From the IMG/VR virus record IMGVR_UViG_3300020434_000055: 64,000 nt of DNA; one strand, 5' to 3'. Shown piece after piece: positions 11,663 through 49,693 of the stretch. The position numbers and the translations under genes are program-made. Within the stretch, counting starts at the first letter, position 1. Every line of letters starts with the position of its first letter. Origin of the DNA: a virus. Lineage: Duplodnaviria > Caudoviricetes. The notes below the pieces were generated by a model. That model saw only the letters and a list, made by a program, of their open reading frames with translations. It ran no database searches and was not told the DNA's origin.

Positions 11663-12623
11663 ACCTAAATTAAGAATATTTGGAGACAGTTTTGCTGTAA
11701 ATCCTCCAGACAGGCAATCAAATTTTTATTCTGTAGATAAAAAACATATCGCTCTCATAGATGAATTTAAAAAAGTAGAAGACAATTATAGACCCTGGAT
11801 GCATCAAGTCGCTGATAAACTTGATATGGAATTAGTAAATCGTTCAGCCGTAGGAATTAGTCAAGACTGGACTATGGATAATATTCATCATGTTATGAAT
11901 GAAATTAGCCCCGATGACCAAGTTCTAATTCTTCTTACGCACCCTGCAAGGTTTTGGTTCTTTCATGACAAACCTACAATGACAAACGCCAATATAGCTA
12001 ATATTGATCAAGAAGTAGATAGCAATCGACTAGAAGCTGTTAAACATTATCTAACAACTATTCAAAGACCACCCCTTGACCTTTTAATGCAAAGTGAAAG
12101 AATGGGTTGGCTATCAGCAACTGCTCATAGATTAAAATGGAAACCTATTCAAATTGTTTATGGTTTTCCTCCTGTTATGTATCCTCAACAATCTGCTGAC
12201 AATTTTTACGGACCTTATATGGAATACGAAAAGTTTGAAAATTTAAAATGTTCTAAAGGTAACTTGCTTGATGACGTAGAATCTCTTGAAGTTAAAGAAG
12301 GAATAAATGAATTTGAATTATGGGAAGGATACGATACTAGATATAATCATTTAATCAAAAGTAATCATGTAATCCTATCTAATTTAATTGTTGAAGCAAT
12401 TAAAAACAAAGAGTGCGTTGATCTTAAATCAGCAAATTGGGTTAAACGAGTTATAGATTTTGATACGTTTAATAATGTAAAGTTTTGTGAAAAAGAAATG
12501 AATCCATATTACTTAAAACTTCGTAAAAAATTCTTTGAAAGTAGTACTAAAGAAGCAAGGATACCTTGGGCTGAACGACTTGGGATTTTTGAGAAATTTG
12601 CGAAAAAACCTAAAAAAGATTAA
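11655..12623 (+). CDS. Hypothetical protein, SGNH-hydrolase-like N-terminal motif
   Basis: LRIFGDSF block, NRSAVGIS, late YNH. Confidence 0.5.
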   Translation: MTKPKLRIFGDSFAVNPPDRQSNFYSVDKKHIALIDEFKKVEDNYRPWMHQVADKLDMELVNRSAVGISQDWTMDNIHHVMNEISPDDQVLILLTHPARFWFFHDKPTMTNANIANIDQEVDSNRLEAVKHYLTTIQRPPLDLLMQSERMGWLSATAHRLKWKPIQIVYGFPPVMYPQQSADNFYGPYMEYEKFENLKCSKGNLLDDVESLEVKEGINEFELWEGYDTRYNHLIKSNHVILSNLIVEAIKNKECVDLKSANWVKRVIDFDTFNNVKFCEKEMNPYYLKLRKKFFESSTKEARIPWAERLGIFEKFAKKPKKD

Positions 12624-12853
12624 TCTTCGTTTAATACTTTTTTACTTGTACTCGATTTCAAAAAGTTTTTTAAAGAAACTAACTTACCTTTCGTAGCAGA
12701 CAGTTTTTCTAATTGTTTTTCTACGGTTCCTACGTAATCAATATGTTCTGCAACTTGGCTTGATGGACTATTCAAATAAATGTATAAGTTGGCTTCAATA
12801 GCCTTTACTTCAGCTTCTAGCTTTTCTACAAGTGCATCTGTTATTTGTGTCAT
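12620..12853 (-). CDS. Hypothetical coiled-coil protein
   Basis: Heptad pattern; TAAATA at 12870-12875 (minus) and SD upstream. Confidence 0.6.
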   Translation of the reverse strand: MTQITDALVEKLEAEVKAIEANLYIYLNSPSSQVAEHIDYVGTVEKQLEKLSATKGKLVSLKNFLKSSTSKKVLNED

Positions 12854-12885
12854 AATTAACTACCCTTATTATTTATACTTAAATT

Positions 12886-12959
12886 TGGTGGAGGATCTGG
12901 GAGTTGAACCCAGGACTCATCCATGCCATGGATACGTGATCCCGCTTCACCAATCCCCC
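12886..12959 (-). tRNA. tRNA-Ala(GGC)
   Basis: Cloverleaf GGGGGAT/ATCCTCC with G3:U70 Ala identity pair, anticodon loop ATGGCAT, T-loop TTCAACT, encoded CCA. Confidence 0.95.
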
Positions 12960-13622
12960 TTAAAGGTTTACTTGACTGGCTCCTTCACCTACTGTTCCTC
13001 GAACAAAACAATTAAATGCTAAAGACCATCTTATTGTATTTTCAGTTAAGTTAGGACTAACACTATGTAATAAGTGACTAGGAAACATAACCAAGTCCCA
13101 CATTTTTGGTTTGAAAGACCAACCTTCTGCATTATAAACATTTAAATCTATTTCTGTTGGATCACCATAATCTATTCTGGCTGTGTCTGTAAAAACATTC
13201 CTCCACATTCTATCTTTATGAAAATTAATATTTCCTGTGTCTCCTATATGTGATAGGTATAACACTCCGCTAATCAAAGAGTTGGCATGAGAGTGTTCCC
13301 CACTCCAATCATTTCGTTCGTATTTGTTCATCCAACTAGTCTCCATTACAAATGTATGTTTTTTATCTACGCCTAAAAAATTATGTACATAACTATCAAG
13401 TTTAAATTGAACTTCTTCTTTTAATGGTTTACAAATAAGTTCGTCTAAAACATGAACATTAGTTGTATTTTGAGCATTAGAATATAAATGTGGTTTGTAT
13501 TCCAAATTCTTAAGATAATCTATAATTTCATCACTGACAGGATTTATATTAGTTTTGCATAAAGGTATTGCAAATAAAGGTGTTACTTCATTATCGGTAA
13601 CGTGTTGTTTTGCTGTAGTCAT
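12960..13622 (-). CDS. 2OG-Fe(II) oxygenase-like protein (TIGR02466-like)
   Basis: TPLFAIP, SWMN, HSHANSLISGVLY, LVMFPSHLLHSV, SLAFN. Confidence 0.88.
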   Translation of the reverse strand: MTTAKQHVTDNEVTPLFAIPLCKTNINPVSDEIIDYLKNLEYKPHLYSNAQNTTNVHVLDELICKPLKEEVQFKLDSYVHNFLGVDKKHTFVMETSWMNKYERNDWSGEHSHANSLISGVLYLSHIGDTGNINFHKDRMWRNVFTDTARIDYGDPTEIDLNVYNAEGWSFKPKMWDLVMFPSHLLHSVSPNLTENTIRWSLAFNCFVRGTVGEGASQVNL

Positions 13623-14182
13623 TATTTAAAATTAGGTCCAGTAAGCCACCCTGTCATGCTTATTCTATTTCCTGATGTAACCGGTTCTACACCATGCAAG
13701 GTATATGGTGGAAATACAACAACCGATCCTTTTTTCATATCAATATATAATCTATTATCTTTATGGAAATCATATTGAATATAAAACTTTCCGCCTTCAA
13801 ATTCATCATTAAGAAGAGCTACCACTGATAGTTTACGACACATACCATTATCAAAATACATTGTGTCTTGATGACCATCATAATGATCTCCTTCTTTATA
13901 AAATAACAATTCAAACTGTGAAGGGCCTGATAAAACATATTTCCAAACACTATCATTAGCTTTATTTGTTAGGCCATATAAAGTTAAACAAATTGGATCA
14001 AATTCATCAAGGTGTACCATTGTAACACTTCTTATGGCTTTGTCTTTAGTTTCTTCTGAAGCTATTTCTCCTTCAATTCTCTTTTTATCTTCAGATCTTT
14101 TTATAGTTAAATCTATAAGTTCTGTAGGAAGAGTACCTCCCGGAAATTCCCAATAAATATTTTCTCTAATTGGTTTAGTCAT
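13622..14182 (-). CDS. 2OG-Fe(II) oxygenase (PKHD-type hydroxylase-like)
   Basis: Y.EGDHYDGHQD, RKLSVV.LLNDEFEGG, GSVVVFP...HGVEPVTSGNRISM.GW. Confidence 0.9.
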   Translation of the reverse strand: MTKPIRENIYWEFPGGTLPTELIDLTIKRSEDKKRIEGEIASEETKDKAIRSVTMVHLDEFDPICLTLYGLTNKANDSVWKYVLSGPSQFELLFYKEGDHYDGHQDTMYFDNGMCRKLSVVALLNDEFEGGKFYIQYDFHKDNRLYIDMKKGSVVVFPPYTLHGVEPVTSGNRISMTGWLTGPNFK

Positions 14183-14183
14183 A

Positions 14184-14765
14184 TTATCTTGGCAAACCTG
14201 CCCCGGAAATTGCAGAAGTGTAATTAAAAGTTATTACTACTCTTTGTTCATGTTTTTGTGGGCAAGTACTTGAATGATAATACTTTCCATCAAAATCTAT
14301 CCAACTATTTTGCGATGGTGTACTTCTTGCCTGTTCTGTATAAGATTCAGAATCTTTAGTTTCATTATAAATTATGGTATCCCCATCAGAAGCAGTAATA
14401 TAATATAATCCTACAGTATGTGGTTGTGGACACGCTTCTGGATTATCTACGTGGGGTGGATGAATTAATTCAAAAGGTACTCTTGTTAACATACCAAGTC
14501 TAACTCGATATAACTCTCTTAGTTCTAAATTTTGTCTATCAAGAGCTGATAATAAAATTGGTAGTGCAATATCAATTACATCTGACGTTTGTCCTCCTTT
14601 ATCTCTAGAATATATAAGATGACTAAAACTAGAACCATAAGACTTAACTGGATCGTTAAAATTAGCAGTAACAGTTGAACGATACCATGGCGTTTCTTGA
14701 CTATCTAATTTTAACCTCACCATATTATAATGATTTGGTCCAAGTAAATTACTGATTTGTTTCAT
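14184..14765 (-). CDS. 2OG-Fe(II) oxygenase-like protein
   Basis: HPPHVD, GLYYI..SDGDT, P..N....FDG..YHSS, RVVITFN. Confidence 0.8.
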   Translation of the reverse strand: MKQISNLLGPNHYNMVRLKLDSQETPWYRSTVTANFNDPVKSYGSSFSHLIYSRDKGGQTSDVIDIALPILLSALDRQNLELRELYRVRLGMLTRVPFELIHPPHVDNPEACPQPHTVGLYYITASDGDTIIYNETKDSESYTEQARSTPSQNSWIDFDGKYYHSSTCPQKHEQRVVITFNYTSAISGAGLPR

Positions 14766-14771
14766 GTGTTC

Positions 14772-15854
14772 CTATTTATTGGCCTTCTTTGACGTTGCTT
14801 TTCTGAATTGAAGAAACTCTCTATTTTGCTTAACACAATTAGTTAGAGTTTCAATAGTTTTTGGGTCTGTTGTTTTTATAATTCCTCCGCCTAAATTAAA
14901 AATATAAGATGAATTTTCAAATTGTCTAAGATACCATAACGCATTTCTTAAAACATTAATTTTTCCTAATGATGGATCAGCTGTTAAAATTTCTGGATCC
15001 ATTCCTCCTTGAACAGTATAATTAGGTAAATGTTTCATAGCCCATTTAGGGTCAACATCAGAACTGATACTAATAACATCAACGCCAGTCCAATGACAAA
15101 ATTCTTTAACATCTTTTCCTATATCTCTAGGGTAACCAATTATTGGAACATTTGGAAATTCTTTTTTTAATTTTTCAACAATATAAGCAGTTGGATTATA
15201 ACAAAAGTCAATAAGATAATCTTCTCCTAACTCACCTGCCCAGCTATCAAAAATTTGTACGATATCACAACCAGCTTTAATTTGTTCTGACAAATGCATA
15301 ACAATAAGATCACACAATTTTTCTAATCTAAACATTGAATCAAATTGATCTAATGATGCCGGATCTGTATTTTTAGATATAGTGTATGGTGAATTAGCAT
15401 TTGATTTTGATCCAGACATCATATATCTTAATAATGTCCATGGTGCTCCAGCAAAACCTATTAATGATTTTCCTTCATGTAATTCTTTACGAACTAATTT
15501 AATTGCTTCATACACTGGTTTAAGTTTTTCTTTTACAACTTCAATATCAGCATTAAACACCGCAGGGTCTAATGGATCTAACTTAGGTCCAGGATTATAA
15601 ACTAATCCTTGCCCCATAGCCCAAGGTATAACCAAAATATCAGAAAAAATTATCGCGGCATCAAGATCAAATCTTTCCATTGGTTGAAGAGTTATCGTTT
15701 TAGCTGTTTCAGGAGTAAGGCACATATCTAAAAATCCTTTACTCTTGTTTTTAATTTCCATATATTCAGGTAGATAACGACCTGCCTGACGCATATACCA
15801 AACTGGAAATAAACCAGTTTCACCATTCATTATTGTTCTATGAAGTCTATTCAT
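14772..15854 (-). CDS. hemE: Uroporphyrinogen decarboxylase
   Basis: PVWYMRQAGRYLPEY, ITLQP..RF.LDAAIIFSDIL, LIGFAGAPWTL..YM, QIFDSWAG, VQGGMDP, IFNLGGGI (His of the usual NLGHG replaced by Gly). Confidence 0.95.
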   Translation of the reverse strand: MNRLHRTIMNGETGLFPVWYMRQAGRYLPEYMEIKNKSKGFLDMCLTPETAKTITLQPMERFDLDAAIIFSDILVIPWAMGQGLVYNPGPKLDPLDPAVFNADIEVVKEKLKPVYEAIKLVRKELHEGKSLIGFAGAPWTLLRYMMSGSKSNANSPYTISKNTDPASLDQFDSMFRLEKLCDLIVMHLSEQIKAGCDIVQIFDSWAGELGEDYLIDFCYNPTAYIVEKLKKEFPNVPIIGYPRDIGKDVKEFCHWTGVDVISISSDVDPKWAMKHLPNYTVQGGMDPEILTADPSLGKINVLRNALWYLRQFENSSYIFNLGGGIIKTTDPKTIETLTNCVKQNREFLQFRKATSKKANK

Positions 15855-15855
15855 A

Positions 15856-15884
15856 TTGACATTACCTTATAAATCTATTATAAT
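15856..15884 (+). promoter_or_regulatory. Consensus sigma70 promoter
   Basis: TTGACA(15856-61)-17 nt-TATAAT(15879-84). Confidence 0.8.
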
Positions 15885-15920
15885 ACTAATTATCTGGTTA
15901 AACGAGTATATAATTAAAGT

Positions 15921-16076
15921 ATGAAACGTAAAAAATTTAGATTAATTAGTAAAAAGAAATCTGTAGCATTTAGAGAACTAGCAGAAGGCTTTTGGTGCAT
16001 TGCCATTAAAGGACGACATTGGGCACAATTCAAGCATTGGTACCAAGAGTGGTGGAAGCCATTATACTGGGATTAA
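15921..16076 (+). CDS. Small basic Trp-rich protein (51 aa), not in ORF track
   Basis: MKRKKFRLISKKKSVAFRELAEGFWCIAIKGRHWAQFKHWYQEWWKPLYWD*; downstream of a consensus promoter. Confidence 0.6.
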   Translation: MKRKKFRLISKKKSVAFRELAEGFWCIAIKGRHWAQFKHWYQEWWKPLYWD

Positions 16077-16094
16077 ACACAACCATAGATCCTA

Positions 16095-16123
16095 TTGACA
16101 TAAATCATAAAATATACTACAAT
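16095..16123 (+). promoter_or_regulatory. Sigma70 promoter for the tRNA-like pair
   Basis: TTGACA(16095-100)-17 nt-TACAAT(16118-23). Confidence 0.75.
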
Positions 16124-16143
16124 AAGAATGCCTGATAAAGTTA

Positions 16144-16220
16144 TGGCTGGTAGTGTAATCGTTAAGAAAGCACACTAGGATCTCCAATCCTAAAATCTTG
16201 GTTCAATCCAAGTCAGTTAT
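16144..16220 (+). tRNA. Non-canonical tRNA-like gene, best read as Gly(TCC)
   Basis: Acceptor TGGCTGG/TCAGTTA (three G:U pairs), D-stem GTGT/GCAC, anticodon stem TAGGA/TCCTA with loop TCTCCAA (C33), 4-nt variable loop, T-stem CTTGG/CCAAG with 6-nt loop TTCAAT, discriminator U, no D-loop GG, no CCA. Confidence 0.6.
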
Positions 16221-16242
16221 ATGAAAATATTAGGTATAACAC

Positions 16243-16331
16243 GCGAGTGTGGTGGAAATGTGATTAGACACACCGATTTCAGAGATCGGCACCCGTAGCC
16301 GGGTTTTATGAGTAAAATCTCATCACTCGCA
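16243..16331 (+). tRNA. Non-canonical type II tRNA-Leu(CAG)-like gene
   Basis: Perfect acceptor GCGAGTG/CACTCGC, anticodon stem CCGAT/ATCGG with loop TTCAGAG, variable arm ACCCG/CGGGT, T-stem ATGAG/CTCAT with 6-nt loop TAAAAT (no TTC), discriminator A, no D-loop GG, no CCA. Confidence 0.7.
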
Positions 16332-16335
16332 TATG

Positions 16336-16356
16336 GGGGTGCTAACGTGGCACCCC
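16336..16356 (+). terminator. GC-rich hairpin after the tRNA-like pair (terminator or processing signal)
   Basis: GGGGTGC/GCACCCC stem, 7-nt loop; no clear U-tract. Confidence 0.45.
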
Positions 16357-16406
16357 TAATAACTAATAACAGTTAATAAACGTTATTAACAATATGGAGA
16401 TGCCAA

Positions 16407-16490
16407 ATGGCTAAAAAGAAAAAAGCTAAAGCTAAAACTAAGAAAAAGAAAAGTAAAAGCAAAAGCAAAAAGAAAAAAAGTAGAAGATAA
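16407..16490 (+). CDS. Lys-rich 27-aa peptide, not in ORF track
   Basis: MAKKKKAKAKTKKKKSKSKSKKKKSRR*; GGAG SD upstream. Confidence 0.65.
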   Translation: MAKKKKAKAKTKKKKSKSKSKKKKSRR

Positions 16491-16603
16491 GAATAAAATC
16501 CCTTCACACTTATATTGGAATTCGGACGAGTTGGTTCAACTCTGACGTCTATAAGTGTGACTGGGGAGTTAAAAGTCCTTCAAAGACGCTACTTAACAAT
16601 CCG

Positions 16604-16632
16604 TTGACAATACCAAAATAACCAACTATAAT
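16604..16632 (+). promoter_or_regulatory. Consensus sigma70 promoter of the RNase P RNA
   Basis: TTGACA(16604-09)-17 nt-TATAAT(16627-32); expected start near 16639, which is the first base of helix P1. Confidence 0.85.
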
Positions 16633-16638
16633 ATAACC

Positions 16639-16797
16639 ATAACTGGATCATCGCTGGGATTTATATCCTAGAGGAAAGTCAGGACACAGGTGGATATGTG
16701 CGAGTTCAAATAGGATGCCAAATATTCGACCACCGGGGCATCGGGTAGAACGCTTAGATTAATGATGATTTAAAACAGAATCCTGCTTACGGGTTAT
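16639..16797 (+). ncRNA. rnpB: Minimal RNase P RNA (catalytic domain only; no S-domain, no P18)
   Basis: GAGGAAAGTCAGGAC (16671-85) and ACAGAATCCTGCTTA (16775-89) form P4 with the bulged U; P1, P2, P3, P5, P6, P15, P16 and the L15 GGU all pair; AGATTAATGA matches the conserved J18/2 block. Confidence 0.92.
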
Positions 16798-16811
16798 ATA
16801 AAGGAAAAGGT

Positions 16812-17024
16812 ATGGTTAAAACATTAAAAAAAGAATATGAAAAAGGTGGCTCCCAGCGACAACATATTTTAGATAAAGCAGTCAAATATATATTAGATAC
16901 TCGCTTTGGTACGCAAAATCATAAACACATTTTCTTAATAGAAGAAGTAGGTTTAACTGAAACTGAATATTTAGAATGTTTAAATAAAGCTACCAATGGG
17001 GGAGTAATTTGGAACACAAATTAA
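16812..17024 (+). CDS. Hypothetical protein
   Basis: ORF track; SD AAGG upstream. Confidence 0.6.
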   Translation: MVKTLKKEYEKGGSQRQHILDKAVKYILDTRFGTQNHKHIFLIEEVGLTETEYLECLNKATNGGVIWNTN

Positions 17025-17653
17025 AAATAAGTCGAATGATAGATATCATTCAAGCTCATGCCCTGAGCTATCCGGGTGGCAGGCATATTGATAAAAGAGT
17101 TATATGGGCAATGACTCAGGTGCCTAGACATTTATTTGTAAAACACTTTCCATACGAAGATAGACCTGTACCAATCGGACACGAACAAACTATCTCTCAA
17201 CCTTTCATTGTTGCTTATATGAGTGATGTTATTGGCTTACAACCATTGCATAAAGTATTAGAAATAGGAACAGGCTCAGGATACCAAGCGGCTATACTAT
17301 CTCATTTAGCACATGAAGTTTATTCAGTAGAAAGAATTCCAGAGTTAACTGCAAGTGCAAAAAAATTATTTGAACATTTAGAGTATGACAATATTAAAAC
17401 AAAAATAAGCGATGGCTATGATGGATGGTCTGAAAACGCACCTTATGATAGAATTATTGTGACAGCAATGGCTAGTGAAGTTCCTGTTGAATTAACAAAA
17501 CAATTAGTAGATGGAGGAACAATGATTATTCCTGTTAATGGATCATTATTACTAATCACTAAAAAGAAAGAGTTAGCAGGTGTTCCAATAATAGAGGAAC
17601 AAACTTTAATAGGAGTAAGGTTCGTACCGCTTGTGAAAGGCATAAATGCATAG
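17009..17653 (+). CDS. pcm: Protein-L-isoaspartate O-methyltransferase
   Basis: VPRHLFV, YEDRPVPIGHEQTISQP, KVLEIGTGSGYQAA, YSVERI, DGYDGW...APYDRIIVTA. Confidence 0.95.
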   Translation: MEHKLKISRMIDIIQAHALSYPGGRHIDKRVIWAMTQVPRHLFVKHFPYEDRPVPIGHEQTISQPFIVAYMSDVIGLQPLHKVLEIGTGSGYQAAILSHLAHEVYSVERIPELTASAKKLFEHLEYDNIKTKISDGYDGWSENAPYDRIIVTAMASEVPVELTKQLVDGGTMIIPVNGSLLLITKKKELAGVPIIEEQTLIGVRFVPLVKGINA

Positions 17654-17654
17654 T

Positions 17655-17731
17655 GGGGGTGTAGCTCAGTTGGTTAGAGCGATCGCCTGTCACGCGATAG
17701 GTCGAGGGTTCGAGTCCCTTCACTCCCGCCA
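17655..17731 (+). tRNA. tRNA-Asp(GTC)
   Basis: Canonical cloverleaf, anticodon loop CTGTCAC, TTCGAGT, discriminator G, encoded CCA. Confidence 0.97.
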
Positions 17732-17746
17732 AAAAAGGACCACTAA

Positions 17747-17998
17747 ATGAAATGGATAATAATTTTGTTTTTTATTTTTATATTTGGTTTGCCTATGTAC
17801 GCCTATTATTCGGTAAGCAGTGGACATTTCTTTCAAGTTAACGCAGGGTGTAAAGAGTGTACAGTAGAAGCAGTTGAAAAAATAAAGGCAAAATTAAAAG
17901 CAGAAAATAATATACGAGTAGAAAAAAATAAAAAAGCACTTCATGACGGAACTTATAAAGCAAAACCGTGGGCCGGGTGGCCGTGGGATAGAGAATAA
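17747..17998 (+). CDS. Small membrane-anchored hypothetical protein (CxxC)
   Basis: Hydrophobic N-terminus, GCKEC. Confidence 0.6.
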
Positions 17999-19437
17999 TG
18001 GAACAAGACAAAATACTTAGAGAACGATTTAAAAAAAAATACGAAGCAGGGTTCACTACTAATGTTGAATCAATAACATTACCACCTGGACTTGATGAAA
18101 GTGTTATAGAACAAATCTCAAAAATTAAAAAAGAACCTAAATGGTTACTTGAATTTAGATTAAAAGCATATGAAAGATGGAAATTACTTAAACAACCTGA
18201 CTGGGCTAATCTTGAAATAGAACCAATAGACTATCAAACCATATCATATTATTCAGCACCCAAACCAGGACCCAAGTCATATGATGATGTCGATCCTGAA
18301 ATTAAAAAAGACTTTGAAAAACTTGGTATACCTTTAGGGGAAAGAGCCCAACTTGCAGGTGTGGCTGTTGATGCCGTATTTGATTCTGTATCTGTTGCAA
18401 CTACGTTTAAAGATAAACTAGCAGAACTAGGAATTATATTCTGTCCATTTTCAGATGCAGTACAAAATCATCCAGACCTTGTAAAAAAATATATGGGATC
18501 AGTTATACCTATAAGTGATCATTCATTTGCCGCTTTAAATTCTGCTGTCTTTACAGATGGTTCATTTGTATATGTTCCTCCAGGTGTAAGATGTCCTATG
18601 GAACTATCAACATATTTTAGAATTAATGCGGCTAACACAGGACAATTTGAAAGAACATTAATTATAGCCGATGTAGGAAGTTATGTAAGTTACCTTGAAG
18701 GATGTACTGCTCCAATGAGAGATGAGAGTCAATTACACGCCGCTAATGTAGAACTTGTAGCACTTGATAATGCAGAAATAAAATACTCAACAATACAAAA
18801 TTGGTATCCAGGAGATCCTGTAACAGGTAAAGGTGGCATATACAATTTTGTAACTAAACGTGGAAAATGTAAAGGAAAAAATTCTAAAATTACTTGGACA
18901 CAATTTGAAACTGGATCACGAATAACTTGGAAGTATCCATCGTGTTTGTTAATGGGTGACAACTCTGTAGGAGAATTTTATTCTGTTGCACTTACAAACG
19001 GTAAACAACAAGCAGATACAGGAACTAAAATGATCCATTTAGGTAAAAATACTAAAAGCACAATTATTTCAAAAGGAATATCTGCAGGACATTCTAAAAA
19101 CACATACAGAGGACTTGTAAGAATTTCTAAGAATGCAAGTAACTCAAAAAATTTTACACAATGTGATTCATTAATGTTGGGTAGTCATTGTTCTGCTAGT
19201 ACAGTACCTTATATTGAAAATAAAAATTCAACAAGTAATTGCAGTCACGAAGCCACAACATCTAAACTAGATGATGAACAATTATTTTATATAATGTCGA
19301 GAGGATTAAAAGACGAGGATGCTAGAAATATGCTCGTAATGGGTTTCTGTAAAGAAGTATTTCAAAAACTACCAATGGAATTTGCCGTAGAGGCTAATAA
19401 ACTATTAGAAGTTAGTATGGAAGGAGCAATAGGATAA
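17998..19437 (+). CDS. sufB: Fe-S cluster assembly protein SufB
   Basis: [66 protein letters not shown]. Confidence 0.97.
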
Positions 19438-20399
19438 TGCAAGACTTAATGTATAAAAAAGTTTCTAAAGTTATTCCTGAAATAGAATGGAAATTTCATT
19501 CTCCTTATGTTTATGAAATTAATAAATTAAAAAAAGAAAAGAATGCAGTTATTCTTGCTCACAATTATATGACACCAGAGATATACCATTGTGTTGCTGA
19601 CATAGTAGGAGACTCTTTAAAATTAGCACAAGAATCACAAAAGACAAAAGCAGATACCATTGTAATGTGTGGTGTAAATTTTATGGCTGATACAGCCAAA
19701 ATAATGAATCCAAGTAAAACTGTTTTAATACCTGATCCACAAGCAGGATGTTCTTTAGCAGAATCTATTACAGGCAAAGATGTACGTTTATTAAAAGAAA
19801 GATATCCTGGTGTGCCTGTTGTGACTTATGTAAACACATCTGCTGACGTTAAAGCTGAAACAGATATATGTTGCACATCAGGTAATGCAGTAGAAATTAT
19901 AGAATCGTTAGGAGTAGATAAAGTTATCTTCCTTCCAGATGAATACCTTGCAAAAAATGTAGCCAAACAAACAAAAGTAAAAATTATTACTTGGCATGGT
20001 ACTTGTATAGTTCATGAAAGATTTACAGCACAAGAAATTAGAGAATATAGAAAAGACAATCCAGGTATAACTATTCTAGCCCATCCAGAATGTACACCAG
20101 AAGTTGTTGCTGAAGTAGACTTTACAGGCTCTACATCTAAAATGAGCAACTACGTTAAAGAAAAACAACCTAACAAAGTATTAATGGTTACAGAATGTTC
20201 TATGAGCGATAACGTTTCAATAGAAAATCCTAATGTAGAATTTGTTAGACCTTGCAATTTGTGTCCACATATGAAACGAATTAGTCTTGTAAAAGTATTG
20301 GAATCATTGATGTTAAATATTCACGAAGTAAAAATTGACCAGGAAATCCTAGAAAAAGCTAGACTTCCAATAGAAAGAATGCTACAATTTAGTAAATGA
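19437..20399 (+). CDS. nadA: Quinolinate synthase
   Basis: [63 protein letters not shown]. Confidence 0.97.
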
Positions 20400-20554
20400 C
20401 CAAAACAATTTTATTTTCTATAATCATTGTTGTGATTATAATTTTAGGAATTTTGGTTAATTTCTACGATAAAAAATTAGTTAAGGAAATTGCAGAACAC
20501 GAAGAAAAAATGAAAAAGAAAGGTCTTTACAAAAGGCATTTTATAAAAAAATGA
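20396..20554 (+). CDS. Small membrane protein (52 aa), not in ORF track
   Basis: N-terminal TM helix, basic tail; ATGA overlap with nadA stop. Confidence 0.55.
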
Positions 20555-20612
20555 TATCGGTTTATATATTAGTAATTGTGTTCATAGTATTTGCAATCAT
20601 TGTAGGTAATAT

Positions 20613-20726
20613 ATGAAAAATTGGACAATAGGTTTTTTAAAAAAACATTACGGTAAAGGTTCACATAGGTGGGCGTTTTGGTTTGAAGGTATAGTAATTG
20701 GATTATTAGTATATCATTTTTTTATA
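20613..20726 (+). CDS. Micro membrane protein (37 aa), not in ORF track
   Basis: MKNWTIGFLKKHYGKGSHRWAFWFEGIVIGLLVYHFL*. Confidence 0.5.
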
Positions 20727-20728
20727 AT

Positions 20729-21004
20729 ATGAAAACTTTATATAAAAAACTAACTACCTTTTTACTTCTCTATTTTAGATTTGATCTACAATTACATTTC
20801 TTCTGGTCTTTCTTTTTAACTATGTTTGCAATTGTTTGGTTACCATTAGTATGGTTAGGACTTATTGCAACAATTATTAAAGAAGGATTAGACTGGTGGA
20901 GCAAAGGTAAATGGAATTGGGATGACTTCTGGTGTGGCTTTGCTGGTTGGATCTGTGGTGTAATTTTTCTTTATGTTCAATCACTTCCTTTAATCTTTTT
21001 ATAG
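20729..21004 (+). CDS. Small multi-pass membrane protein
   Basis: LHF, KEGLDWW..GKWNWDDFW motif, three hydrophobic segments. Confidence 0.65.
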   Translation: MKTLYKKLTTFLLLYFRFDLQLHFFWSFFLTMFAIVWLPLVWLGLIATIIKEGLDWWSKGKWNWDDFWCGFAGWICGVIFLYVQSLPLIFL

Positions 21005-21005
21005 A

Positions 21006-21081
21006 GCCCCTCTAGCTCATTAGGTAGAGCAACTGATTTGTAATCAGTAGGTGGCCTGTTCGAATCGGGCGGGGGGCACCA
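21006..21081 (+). tRNA. tRNA-Thr(TGT)
   Basis: Canonical cloverleaf, anticodon loop TTTGTAA, TTCGAAT, encoded CCA. Confidence 0.97.
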
Positions 21082-21132
21082 GTTTAATCGGGTGGCATAA
21101 GAGATAAATACATACTTAATAGGAGAATACAA

Positions 21133-21306
21133 ATGATAGAAGAATTAAAAAACTGGATTATTGCTATTGCTAAAGATTTTGTTAATGGTACAACTGCTGG
21201 TGCAGGCGAACTATGTGACGAAACAGTAGAAACTGCAGGTACAATTTGCGACGAAACTAAAAAAGCAAATGCAAGTTTCGTTAAAGCAATAATGGACAGT
21301 ATATAA
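21133..21306 (+). CDS. Hypothetical protein (57 aa), not in ORF track
   Basis: MIEELKNWII...KAIMDSI*; TAAATA and AGGAG SD upstream. Confidence 0.65.
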   Translation: MIEELKNWIIAIAKDFVNGTTAGAGELCDETVETAGTICDETKKANASFVKAIMDSI

Positions 21307-21315
21307 GGAGACGTT

Positions 21316-21480
21316 ATGTGGAAACCAGATCTTAAAAAACTTACTGATCCAATTAAAAAAGCTAAAGACAAAGCTGTTGGAGTTGGTAAAGGGCTAGGAG
21401 AAAATGCCAAAAATATTGGTAAAGATTCTGTAGGTAAAGTTAAAAGTGGAATTAAGAAATTAAACCCTTTTAAAAAATAA
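21316..21480 (+). CDS. Basic hypothetical protein (54 aa), not in ORF track
   Basis: MWKPDLKKL...KKLNPFKK*; GGAG SD. Confidence 0.65.
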   Translation: MWKPDLKKLTDPIKKAKDKAVGVGKGLGENAKNIGKDSVGKVKSGIKKLNPFKK

Positions 21481-21503
21481 ACTAACTGATAGGGAGACTA
21501 GTT

Positions 21504-21797
21504 ATGTGGAAATGGCTAGAAAAAGTAATTGGTACATACGACCCGACGGGTACATACGACAAGCCTTTGCGTTTAACCAAAGAATATAAAAAACCTAAAC
21601 GAGCAAGAACTAAATTAGGTAGATACAGAGCGGACGATAAATCTACTGCTGATCATAATGAAGCTTGGGTAGGTGGAAGAAAACCTAGAAAGAAACGTAA
21701 AGTTTATACAATACGGGGCAAAAAATATGTCCTTAAAAAAGGCAAAAAGAAAGCCAAAAAAGATCCGTACGCAGGTAAGTGGCAAGGTAACATCTAG
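21504..21797 (+). CDS. Basic phage hypothetical protein
   Basis: KRARTK.G.Y.ADDKST.D.NEAWVGG motif that I recall from marine myovirus proteins; GGGAG SD. Confidence 0.7.
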   Translation: MWKWLEKVIGTYDPTGTYDKPLRLTKEYKKPKRARTKLGRYRADDKSTADHNEAWVGGRKPRKKRKVYTIRGKKYVLKKGKKKAKKDPYAGKWQGNI

Positions 21798-21881
21798 AAA
21801 GAAAAGATTAACACCTTACGAAATTTATTTAAAAATATTAGAAGACCCTTCTTACGTTTTTAAGGACGATAAAAAATAAAC

Positions 21882-22073
21882 TTATTTGTAATAGTCTAAA
21901 TCTTTTTCCTTCTTGAACTTACTTAAAATCTTTTGTACAAATTCAACAACGTATCCAGTCCATTGTACAAGCAATGCCCATATTATTACACTTAAAAATA
22001 ATACTACGCAAGTTGGAATCCATATCATAAAGAATAAGGCACTTCCTATAGTTTCTATTATATTTTTTACCAT
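21882..22073 (-). CDS. Small membrane protein
   Basis: Long hydrophobic stretch; overlaps hemF stop. Confidence 0.55.
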   Translation of the reverse strand: MVKNIIETIGSALFFMIWIPTCVVLFLSVIIWALLVQWTGYVVEFVQKILSKFKKEKDLDYYK

Positions 22074-22903
22074 TTGACCTCCGGTGGTAACGACATTAAT
22101 ATTGCGTCCATATTTCCTCCTGTTTGTAATCCAAATTTTGTTCCACGATCATACATTAAATTAAATTCAACGTACCTTCCTCTTTTAAATAATTGTTTTT
22201 CTTTATCCTTTTCATCCCAAACATAATTTTGATTTTGTAAAACAATATTACTCATAAGAGAATTAAAAGTTCTACCAATATCTTTCACAAATTCCATATC
22301 TTTATCAAAGTCTTTAAAATGATAATCAAAAAATAAACCACCTATACCACGAGGCTCTTTTCTGTGTGGCAAATAAAAGTATTCATCGCACCACTCAGAA
22401 AACTTAGAATAATACTCTTCATCGTGTTTGTTACACATTAATTCGAGTTGAGTATGGTACCAATCTTTTTGTTTATCATTTTCAATACAAGGAGTAACAT
22501 CCATTCCGCCACCGAACCAACATTTCGTAGTACAAATAAATCTAGTATTAAAATGCATTGCAGGAATTTTAGGATTCTTTGGATGTAGAACAACCGAAAT
22601 ACCTGACGCCCAATAATTAGGATCTTTCTCTGTACCTGGTATTTGTTTTCTCATAAGGTCATTAAACTCTCCTGTTACTCTTGAATAATTTACCGTTCCT
22701 TTTTCAAAAACATTTCCTTGAATAACAAAATGTTCTTGATACCATCCTTCTCTTTGTGAAGTTTTATGGCTTTTCATTTTAGCAGGATTTGTTGGATAAA
22801 ATTCTTTTTCTAATGCATCTATATTTTTACGAATGTCATGTTGTAAAGATTGAAACCAAGTAGTAGCTATCTCTTGGTATTTTAATTTTGATTTGATTTT
22901 CAC
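22067..22903 (-). CDS. hemF: Oxygen-dependent coproporphyrinogen III oxidase
   Basis: GNVFEKG.VNYS.V.G, WASGISVVLHP.NP.IP.MHFN.R, WFGGGMD.TP, CDEYFYLPHR.E.RGIGGLFFD, RGRYVEFNL.YDRGT.FGL. Confidence 0.97.
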   Translation of the reverse strand: MKIKSKLKYQEIATTWFQSLQHDIRKNIDALEKEFYPTNPAKMKSHKTSQREGWYQEHFVIQGNVFEKGTVNYSRVTGEFNDLMRKQIPGTEKDPNYWASGISVVLHPKNPKIPAMHFNTRFICTTKCWFGGGMDVTPCIENDKQKDWYHTQLELMCNKHDEEYYSKFSEWCDEYFYLPHRKEPRGIGGLFFDYHFKDFDKDMEFVKDIGRTFNSLMSNIVLQNQNYVWDEKDKEKQLFKRGRYVEFNLMYDRGTKFGLQTGGNMDAILMSLPPEVKW

Positions 22904-28121: not shown

Positions 28122-28427
28122 TCATTTTAAATATTTCCTTGCATACCATTTATAAAATTTTTTATGTTTAAAATACCACATTACACCTGAATTAGAAACC
28201 TGATCAGATCTTATACAATCTGCAATATCTTGGAATTCGGATTTTGGGAAAGGTTCTGCATGAGTTTCTTTTATAATTTTTATTAATTTTTTATGATTCC
28301 TTTTCTTCTTTACACCTTTGGGTTCAGCCTTTTTTAATGCCTTTTTATGTTGCTTATTATATTCATCTTCACTTATATTAAATGAAAATTCAGCATCACC
28401 ATCCCAGACATTCTTTTTTCTAGCCAT
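28122..28427 (-). CDS. Hypothetical protein
   Basis: ORF track; IADCIRSDQV motif. Confidence 0.6.
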   Translation of the reverse strand: MARKKNVWDGDAEFSFNISEDEYNKQHKKALKKAEPKGVKKKRNHKKLIKIIKETHAEPFPKSEFQDIADCIRSDQVSNSGVMWYFKHKKFYKWYARKYLK

Positions 28428-32303: not shown

Positions 32304-32342
32304 TCTAATAACCAACCGTTAACATAGCATATAAATATCTTT

Positions 32343-49665: not shown

Positions 49666-49693
49666 CCCTGTTTTTTAGATATAAATAGTTTTA

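Follow-up and report, generated by a model that had tools for sequence, protein, structure and literature searches.

Three tRNA genes that abut stop codons in a probable jumbo pelagiphage, and the linkage of phage tRNAs to a catalytic-domain-only RNase P RNA

The 64,000-nucleotide stretch of Caudoviricetes DNA analysed here (IMG/VR record IMGVR_UViG_3300020434_000055; the whole stretch is called the window below) carries three canonical tRNA genes, each of which begins 0-1 nt behind the stop codon of a protein-coding gene. The tRNA-Ala(GGC) gene follows its TAA with no gap, and the tRNA-Asp(GUC) and tRNA-Thr(UGU) genes follow a TAG with a single T or A in between (Table 1). The spacing named in the original prediction, a note made from the sequence alone, was borne out to the base at all three junctions. 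We explain the arrangement by genome compaction, read-through transcription from the upstream genes and excision of the tRNAs by RNase P, and hold this explanation as a whole with a probability of just over two-thirds. The case is an extreme but ordinary mRNA-tRNA co-transcript, a consequence of compaction; there is no support for punctuation of transcripts by tRNAs as a device under selection.

The tRNA junctions and their transcription

ARAGORN identifies exactly three tRNAs in the window (Ala-GGC, Asp-GTC, Thr-TGT), and the 5' ends given by Rfam coincide with those of ARAGORN in every case. Each tRNA forms a cloverleaf well above the gathering score (52.9-72 bits against 29 for RF00005), has a 7-bp acceptor stem and encodes its CCA. 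From the tRNA 3' end to the next start codon there are 32 nt (Ala), 15 nt (Asp) and 51 nt (Thr).

The three open reading frames (ORFs) that end at the tRNAs are real genes. The PHROG match of the 2OG-Fe(II) oxygenase extends to residue 219 of 220, the PCMT match of pcm to residue 211 of 214, and homologues of the 91-aa membrane-protein gene are present in 15 IMG/VR contigs. For pcm, the ATG at 17037 is more likely to be the start than position 17009. One could suppose that these ORFs merely extend to the first stop and that this stop lies beside a tRNA by accident. Stop triplets are common in DNA of about 32% GC, as in the window, and ORFs that enter tRNAs often stop at the conserved TAG of positions 8-10, from which the gap values of -10 in the survey below arise. 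However, the oxygenase and pcm end where their family models and their counterparts in the closest relative end, the tRNA-Asp junction is kept in near-identical strain contigs (8 of 10 with TAG-T-tRNA-Asp), and gaps of 0-1 nt make up only 4-12% of the junctions elsewhere. An annotation artefact is therefore scarcely credible.

The window as a whole is tightly packed. A crude ORF call yields 97 ORFs and 69 same-strand junctions; the median gap between coding sequences on the same strand is 4-8 nt, and about 40% of the junctions are at +1 nt or tighter, overlaps included. If tRNAs were packed like other genes, finding three of three junctions at +1 nt or less would have p ~0.06 with this crude gene call.

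Promoters were searched in the 10.5-kb stretch 12000-22500 by scoring matches to the sigma-70 consensus out of 12. Near-perfect matches occur there only in the gene-poor stretch 15855-16810. In the 200 nt upstream of each tRNA there was no promoter-like site; the best sigma-70 score was 8/12, which is the lowest common value in 2000 random 200-nt windows of the same DNA. The earlier statement that the tRNAs have no room for a promoter or leader is hence true of the gaps, and holds for 200 nt of upstream coding sequence as well. Consensus scans also revealed no terminator-like site between any upstream gene and its tRNA, after any of the three tRNAs, or from the RNase P RNA gene (see below) through nadA. 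Without promoters of their own, the tRNAs would be reached by read-through from the upstream gene, and such co-transcription is well supported by the gene arrangement. As far as consensus scans go, this is the configuration of Escherichia coli secG-leuU, with the tRNA on the same strand downstream of a coding sequence and neither promoter nor terminator between. The promoter ahead of the RNase P RNA is probably the start of the transcript that contains tRNA-Asp.

Alternatively, promoters inside the upstream coding sequences might give rise to separate tRNA precursors. Weak 9/12 matches lie about 200 nt upstream of tRNA-Asp (17394-17422) and tRNA-Ala (13193-13164), and the sigma-70 model does not cover promoters of the phage middle type. 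But 9/12 matches are no commoner in the region than in shuffled sequence (42 found, 47.8 expected), the stricter test stops at 8/12, and related tRNAs that do have promoters show near-consensus boxes right at the tRNA. We consider internal promoters very unlikely.

Our proposal is that the three tRNAs, lacking promoters, sit inside polycistronic units of a highly compacted jumbo phage. Both tRNA-Asp and tRNA-Thr would be transcribed downstream of the RNase P RNA promoter, and tRNA-Ala at the end of a minus-strand hemE/2OG operon. RNase P universally makes the 5' ends of tRNAs; because the tRNAs would be co-transcribed with their upstream genes, the enzyme is expected to cut at G1, 0-1 nt past the stop codon. 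This enzyme may be the host holoenzyme and/or the phage mini RNase P RNA, presumably with host RnpA. Host 3' nucleases would then trim to the encoded CCA. The upstream mRNA would be left with an unprotected 3' end at +0 or +1 from its stop and, by analogy with secG-leuU, may decay faster. The spacing of 0-1 nt would be what the loss of spacers and the shuffling of modules at the borders of tRNAs finally lead to, and would not be a code tuned for processing. Of the predicted excision of the tRNAs from mRNAs, co-transcription is thus what the missing promoters speak for, and the cut behind the stop follows by inference from the role of RNase P.

Spacing in strains, relatives and other phages

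A megablast of the region against cultured phages returned only tRNA-sized matches, and the window phage appears to have no close cultured relative. Its closest relative is a 43.6-kb contig (L001) that is 70-93% identical and syntenic to window 97-37314. L001 keeps TAA-T-tRNA-Asp (gap 1) and TAA-tRNA-Thr (gap 0), the latter by a one-base deletion that converts TAG-A to TAA. The tRNA-Ala(GGC) gene is absent from L001; the oxygenase ends at the same residue and the next ATG stands 13 nt after its stop. Three additional tRNAs with 6-nt spacers follow tRNA-Thr in this contig. An exact protein look-up recovered ten more contigs, all from metagenome assemblies, that are 96-100% identical to the window. 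TAG-T-tRNA-Asp is kept in eight of the ten. Contig L189 begins inside the tRNA, and L191 carries a tRNA-Val plus 5 nt where pcm stands in the window. In L191 (1-170, against window 17653), identity to the window starts 2 nt before tRNA-Asp and is 100% downstream, which places an apparent recombination breakpoint at the 5' edge of the tRNA.

Further away the tRNAs disappear. There is no tRNA within 4 kb of the 14 more distant homologues of the 91-aa gene, and none near pcm in six more distant relatives (L002-L007, 56% identity). The tRNAs are missing at the homologous sites in L001 and L008-L022, and the arrangement is not conserved as it would be in mitochondrial-type punctuation. Even close relatives differ by gain and loss of the tRNAs, and these changes fall exactly on gene borders.

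For the wider clade we surveyed a complete genome of 328 kb (G006), a 242-kb genome (G007) and the fragments L023-L036, with the window excluded. Several of these members share proteins of 45-80% identity with the window, and G006 and G007, surveyed for other tRNAs, served as stand-ins for the window's whole genome. Only ORF-to-tRNA junctions were counted, leaving out tRNA-tRNA spacers. The 34 junctions fall into three groups: 14 abutting (gaps of -18, -10, -2, -1, 0, 0, 1, 1, 2, 3, 4, 7, 9 and 12 nt), 4 at 25-43 nt and 16 at >150 nt. The tRNAs with gaps of 25-43 nt (L037, L045, L054 and L061, from G006/G007) have a compact promoter of their own. Its -10 box ends 7-10 nt before the tRNA, so that these tRNAs would be primary transcripts with almost no leader. 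The window's three tRNAs appear to belong to the class without a promoter of its own.

In a broad IMG/VR sample, anchored on the anticodon arm of tRNA-Thr, gaps of 13 nt or less were found at 41 of 128 junctions. Gaps of 0-1 nt were seen at 5 of these 128 junctions, versus 4 of 34 in the clade. Abutment is therefore common in phages and tightest in the window's clade, but it is not fixed at 0-1 nt, and the window's junctions are the tight end of a real trend. Comparing the stop-to-tRNA distance across relatives, as the original prediction had suggested, turned out against it: the spacing is retained only in the closest relative and the near-identical strains, and in the wider clade the distance lies between -18 and +13 nt or the tRNA has its own promoter.

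In one clade fragment (L033), stop codons even reach into tRNAs. The TAG of a cytochrome b gene (422 aa) shares its G with G1 of tRNA-Glu, and the ORF of a 2OG oxygenase extends 18 nt into tRNA-Gly, where it ends at the TAG of the D-arm. At such sites abutment would be incompatible with retaining the stop codon after an RNase P cut. Given these stops and the spread of the abutting class, the exact position of the stop does not seem to be what is selected. The locus (L033:5310-7778, minus strand) holds RNase P RNA, tRNA-Gln, tRNA-Asp, cytochrome b, tRNA-Glu, tRNA-Cys, 2OG oxygenase and tRNA-Gly on one strand. A phage-borne cytochrome b gene is unusual in itself.

Spacer loss can be followed at tRNA-Asp. 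Over 77 of 77 nt, CCA included, the phage gene matches the tRNA-Asp found in at least 120 genomes of Pelagibacteraceae (comparison with L194-L273). Nine other phage contigs carry the identical gene, and for some of them no protein similarity to the window could be detected in the flanks that were fetched. As host and phage share this gene, assemblies would be expected to break at it, and contig ends at this point would say little about transcripts. The identity with Pelagibacteraceae indicates a SAR11 host, and the window probably derives from a jumbo phage that is a pelagiphage. In Pelagibacteraceae, a tRNA-Val lies 12-15 nt before tRNA-Asp and 47-50 nt after the previous ORF, whereas the Val-Asp pair is only 1-5 nt apart in phages. 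This difference appears to show the loss of spacer directly.

A mini RNase P RNA and the case for punctuation

Upstream of pcm, the window encodes an RNase P RNA that consists of the catalytic domain only. Its alignment to the type A model runs from one end to the other and includes the catalytic core, but 5 nt stand in for 155 specificity-domain positions. The score stays below the gathering score of 100 bits that is expected of a full type A RNase P RNA (RF00010). A pattern search for the mini core yielded seven more IMG/VR contigs (L023, L031-L036). The promoter box TTGACA-17-TATAAT is conserved in all eight contigs, and 14 of 32 predicted pairs show covariation among the eight homologues. 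Each of the seven other contigs has a tRNA (Asp, Ala, Ser or Gln) on the same strand, beginning 6-15 nt behind helix P1, and the one in L023 is the identical tRNA-Asp. In the window, a 70-aa ORF and pcm separate the two.

This gene order, which is the most useful by-product of the analysis, speaks for a functional link of the mini RNase P RNA with the phage tRNAs. It suggests that the 3' end of the mini RNA is normally made by an RNase P cut and that RNA and tRNA form a dicistron that may be capable of self-processing. No Pfam match was obtained for the small ORFs that surround the RNase P RNA and no RnpA-like protein was seen among them, nor is there an RnpA in the complete phage genome G006. 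In Pelagibacter itself, both RnpA and an RNase P RNA of full length (276-292 bits) are present.

An RNase P RNA of the catalytic domain only is also found in Pyrobaculum (type T). Another example is the engineered C-domain of the E. coli RNA (PMC5839562). The phage RNA resembles both in that it keeps the catalytic domain without a specificity domain. Unlike them, it is natural and phage-encoded, measures 163 nt, has a sigma-70 promoter and lies upstream of tRNAs. Our literature searches returned nothing relevant on phage-encoded RNase P RNA, nor on tRNA punctuation in phages.

The original prediction saw in the excision of the tRNAs a concrete job for the phage RNase P RNA. The tRNA behind it in seven of seven other contigs speaks for such a job, but a strict dependence of abutment on this RNA is weakened by L001, whose 43.6 kb contain no core motif of RNase P RNA and yet show the same tRNA abutment. 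At the corresponding site of L001 (9472-9756, against window 16496-16811 and 28141-28311), a 94-aa ORF replaces the RNase P RNA and its promoter. This ORF resembles a window gene on the minus strand (28122-28427).

The same prediction likened the arrangement to the tRNA punctuation of mitochondria, reportedly described by Ojala, Montoya and Attardi in 1981. There, almost all mRNAs have tRNAs at their flanks, and it is by cleavage that the functional mRNAs arise. The likeness lies in tRNAs that abut coding sequences at 0-1 nt (here 0, 1 and 1 nt), and the stops that overlap tRNAs in relatives resemble the incomplete stop codons of mitochondria. Unlike mitochondrial DNA, the window has complete stops and only three tRNAs in 64 kb, and these tRNAs are dispensable among its relatives. 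With three tRNAs for about 97 ORFs and 69 same-strand junctions, most mRNA junctions are not flanked by a tRNA, and since neither the spacing nor the tRNAs are conserved, the comparison did not hold.

Could the tRNAs nevertheless be selected as processing signals, at which the mini RNase P, expressed early, cuts long transcripts in order to separate mRNAs or to time their decay? The strong, conserved sigma-70 promoter of the mini RNA and the tRNA that follows it in the seven other contigs would fit, as would L033, where RNase P RNA, tRNAs, cytochrome b, tRNAs, 2OG oxygenase and tRNA alternate on one strand. In the window, tRNA-Ala and tRNA-Thr mark the exact boundary between an operon and the regulatory region that follows. 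The CCA is encoded in 57 of 58 distinct tRNAs of the clade loci, the lone exception being cut off by the contig end, versus 77% of the tRNAs in the broad phage sample (L062-L141). RNase P RNA pairs with the CCA through L15, and CCA in all 57 complete tRNAs would suit a catalytic-domain-only enzyme that relies on this pairing. (A U at position -1 is found in 40% of the clade tRNAs versus 65% in the broad sample.) Yet selected punctuation is unlikely. Besides the scarcity of tRNAs among the ORFs, their inconstant presence and spacing and the abutment in L001, a cut would destroy the stops located inside the tRNAs of relatives. Moreover, the cut in secG-leuU destabilises the upstream mRNA rather than maturing it, and the host owns a full RNase P. 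Distinctly unlikely, too, is the more far-reaching idea that mini RNase P RNA and gene-abutting tRNAs are one phage-controlled RNA-processing system, in which an early ribozyme, made from a promoter of the host type, would free itself and the tRNAs out of mixed RNA-mRNA transcripts, cut at or inside stops and so shut off upstream metabolic mRNAs on schedule.

Several observations weigh against compaction with read-through and RNase P excision. Three of three junctions at 0-1 nt is tighter than the abutting class of the clade predicts (~2-4 of 12-14 junctions, p ~0.005-0.02), and this spacing is kept in L001 and the near-identical strain contigs, so that some selection for minimal spacing is possible. 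A consensus scan may miss weak or non-sigma-70 promoters, such as those of the phage middle type, inside the upstream genes. The conserved linkage of RNase P RNA and tRNA hints at a dedicated processing arrangement and not mere packing. Finally, what the DNA shows is the anatomy, the lack of promoters, the comparative pattern and the linkage of RNase P RNA and tRNA; read-through, cleavage, the RNase P at work and the fate of the mRNA we infer from it.

Gene neighbourhood and comparison with known systems

The features of the region are listed in Table 1. The plus strand carries, in this order, RNase P RNA, 70-aa ORF, pcm, tRNA-Asp, 83-aa ORF, sufB and nadA. On the minus strand, hemE, an endonuclease V-like gene and two oxygenases lead into tRNA-Ala. 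The stretch 15855-16810 is gene-poor within the otherwise tightly packed window. Between the promoters and the RNase P RNA, a 27-aa ORF (16408-16491), all-basic and Lys-rich, is preceded by a GGAG ribosome-binding site. In the strain contig L187 (2322-3761), the ORF call splits sufB in two (261 and 161 aa), which may reflect a frameshift, an insertion or an assembly error.

Table 1. Features around the three tRNA genes of the window
Feature	Position	Strand	Remarks
Box TATAAATA, T4-type late-promoter-like	12870-12877	minus	8 nt after tRNA-Ala 3' end, upstream of ORF 12620-12853
tRNA-Ala(GGC)	12886-12959	minus	ARAGORN and Rfam; G3:U70; CCA encoded; G1 at 12959, gap 0
2OG-Fe(II) oxygenase gene	12960-13622	minus	stop TAA 12962-12960; PHROG match
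Sigma-70 match 12/12	15856-15884	plus	head of plus-strand block
Sigma-70 match 11/12	16095-16123	plus	ahead of non-canonical tRNA-like gene
Non-canonical tRNA-like gene	16144-16220	plus	33.7 bits; no CCA; own promoter
Sigma-70 match 12/12	16604-16632	plus	6 nt before RNase P RNA
Mini RNase P RNA, 163 nt	16639-16801	plus	catalytic domain only; 75.9 bits, E 3e-21
70-aa ORF	16812-17024	plus	between RNase P RNA and pcm
pcm (protein-L-isoaspartate O-methyltransferase, PCMT)	17009-17653	plus	stop TAG 17651-17653
tRNA-Asp(GUC)	17655-17731	plus	ARAGORN and Rfam; CCA encoded; T17654, then G1 at 17655, gap 1 nt
83-aa ORF	17747-17998	plus	15 nt after tRNA-Asp; then sufB and nadA with 1-nt overlaps
Conserved membrane-protein gene, 91 aa	20729-21004	plus	stop TAG 21002-21004
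tRNA-Thr(UGU)	21006-21081	plus	ARAGORN and Rfam; CCA encoded; A21005, then G1 at 21006, gap 1 nt
36-nt spacer	21097-21132	plus	ahead of gene after tRNA-Thr; window and L001 exactly the same, flanks 77-85% identical

The box behind tRNA-Ala, TATAAATA, has three copies in the window (the others at 32330-32337 and 49680-49687) versus 13 expected by chance, and all three end 5-16 nt ahead of an ORF start. It is probably a late promoter that is avoided elsewhere. The spacer that follows tRNA-Thr is probably a promoter and ribosome-binding region, which would put tRNA-Thr at the end of an operon. With these elements directly behind tRNA-Ala and tRNA-Thr, two of the three tRNAs would close an operon and not split one. 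For these two, the predicted segmentation of the transcript therefore falls away, as a cut at an operon's 3' end would not separate two cistrons.

The closest parallel is secG-leuU, which has a spacer of 14 nt. One cut by RNase P parts its mRNA from the tRNA, and the secG mRNA released in this way decays in <30 s (PMC2241853). As there (Mohanty and Kushner 2008), the window's tRNAs stand directly behind a protein gene with a short spacer and would share its transcript. RNase E and exonucleases finish the 3' end of the secG-leuU tRNA at the encoded CCA, and we propose the same for the phage tRNAs. The systems differ in the spacer (14 nt versus 0-1 nt), in the rho-independent terminator that ends secG-leuU (none was seen for the window's tRNAs), and in the mini RNase P RNA that the phage genome carries. 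Operons of the tufB type are further mRNA-tRNA co-transcripts, and the tRNA cluster of phage T4 is processed by host RNase P. As in T4, the tRNAs of the window would come from longer transcripts and be matured by RNase P, whose substrates have been reviewed (PMC11143913). However, the tRNAs of T4 form a cluster, and this phage is not known to encode an RNase P RNA, whereas those of the window are scattered singly behind metabolic genes.

These results show that phages can pack a tRNA gene immediately against the preceding stop codon and, in relatives, into it. In such an arrangement, tRNA maturation and use of the upstream mRNA would compete on one RNA. The pairs pcm-tRNA-Asp and cytochrome b-tRNA-Glu offer natural substrates on which the catalytic-domain-only RNase P RNA of phages may be compared with the host enzyme. 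The conserved gene order ties the phage ribozyme to the tRNAs, and an uncultured jumbo phage can be assigned a probable SAR11 host. The abutment itself would be what compaction and the known biology of RNase P lead one to expect, with no need for a new mechanism.

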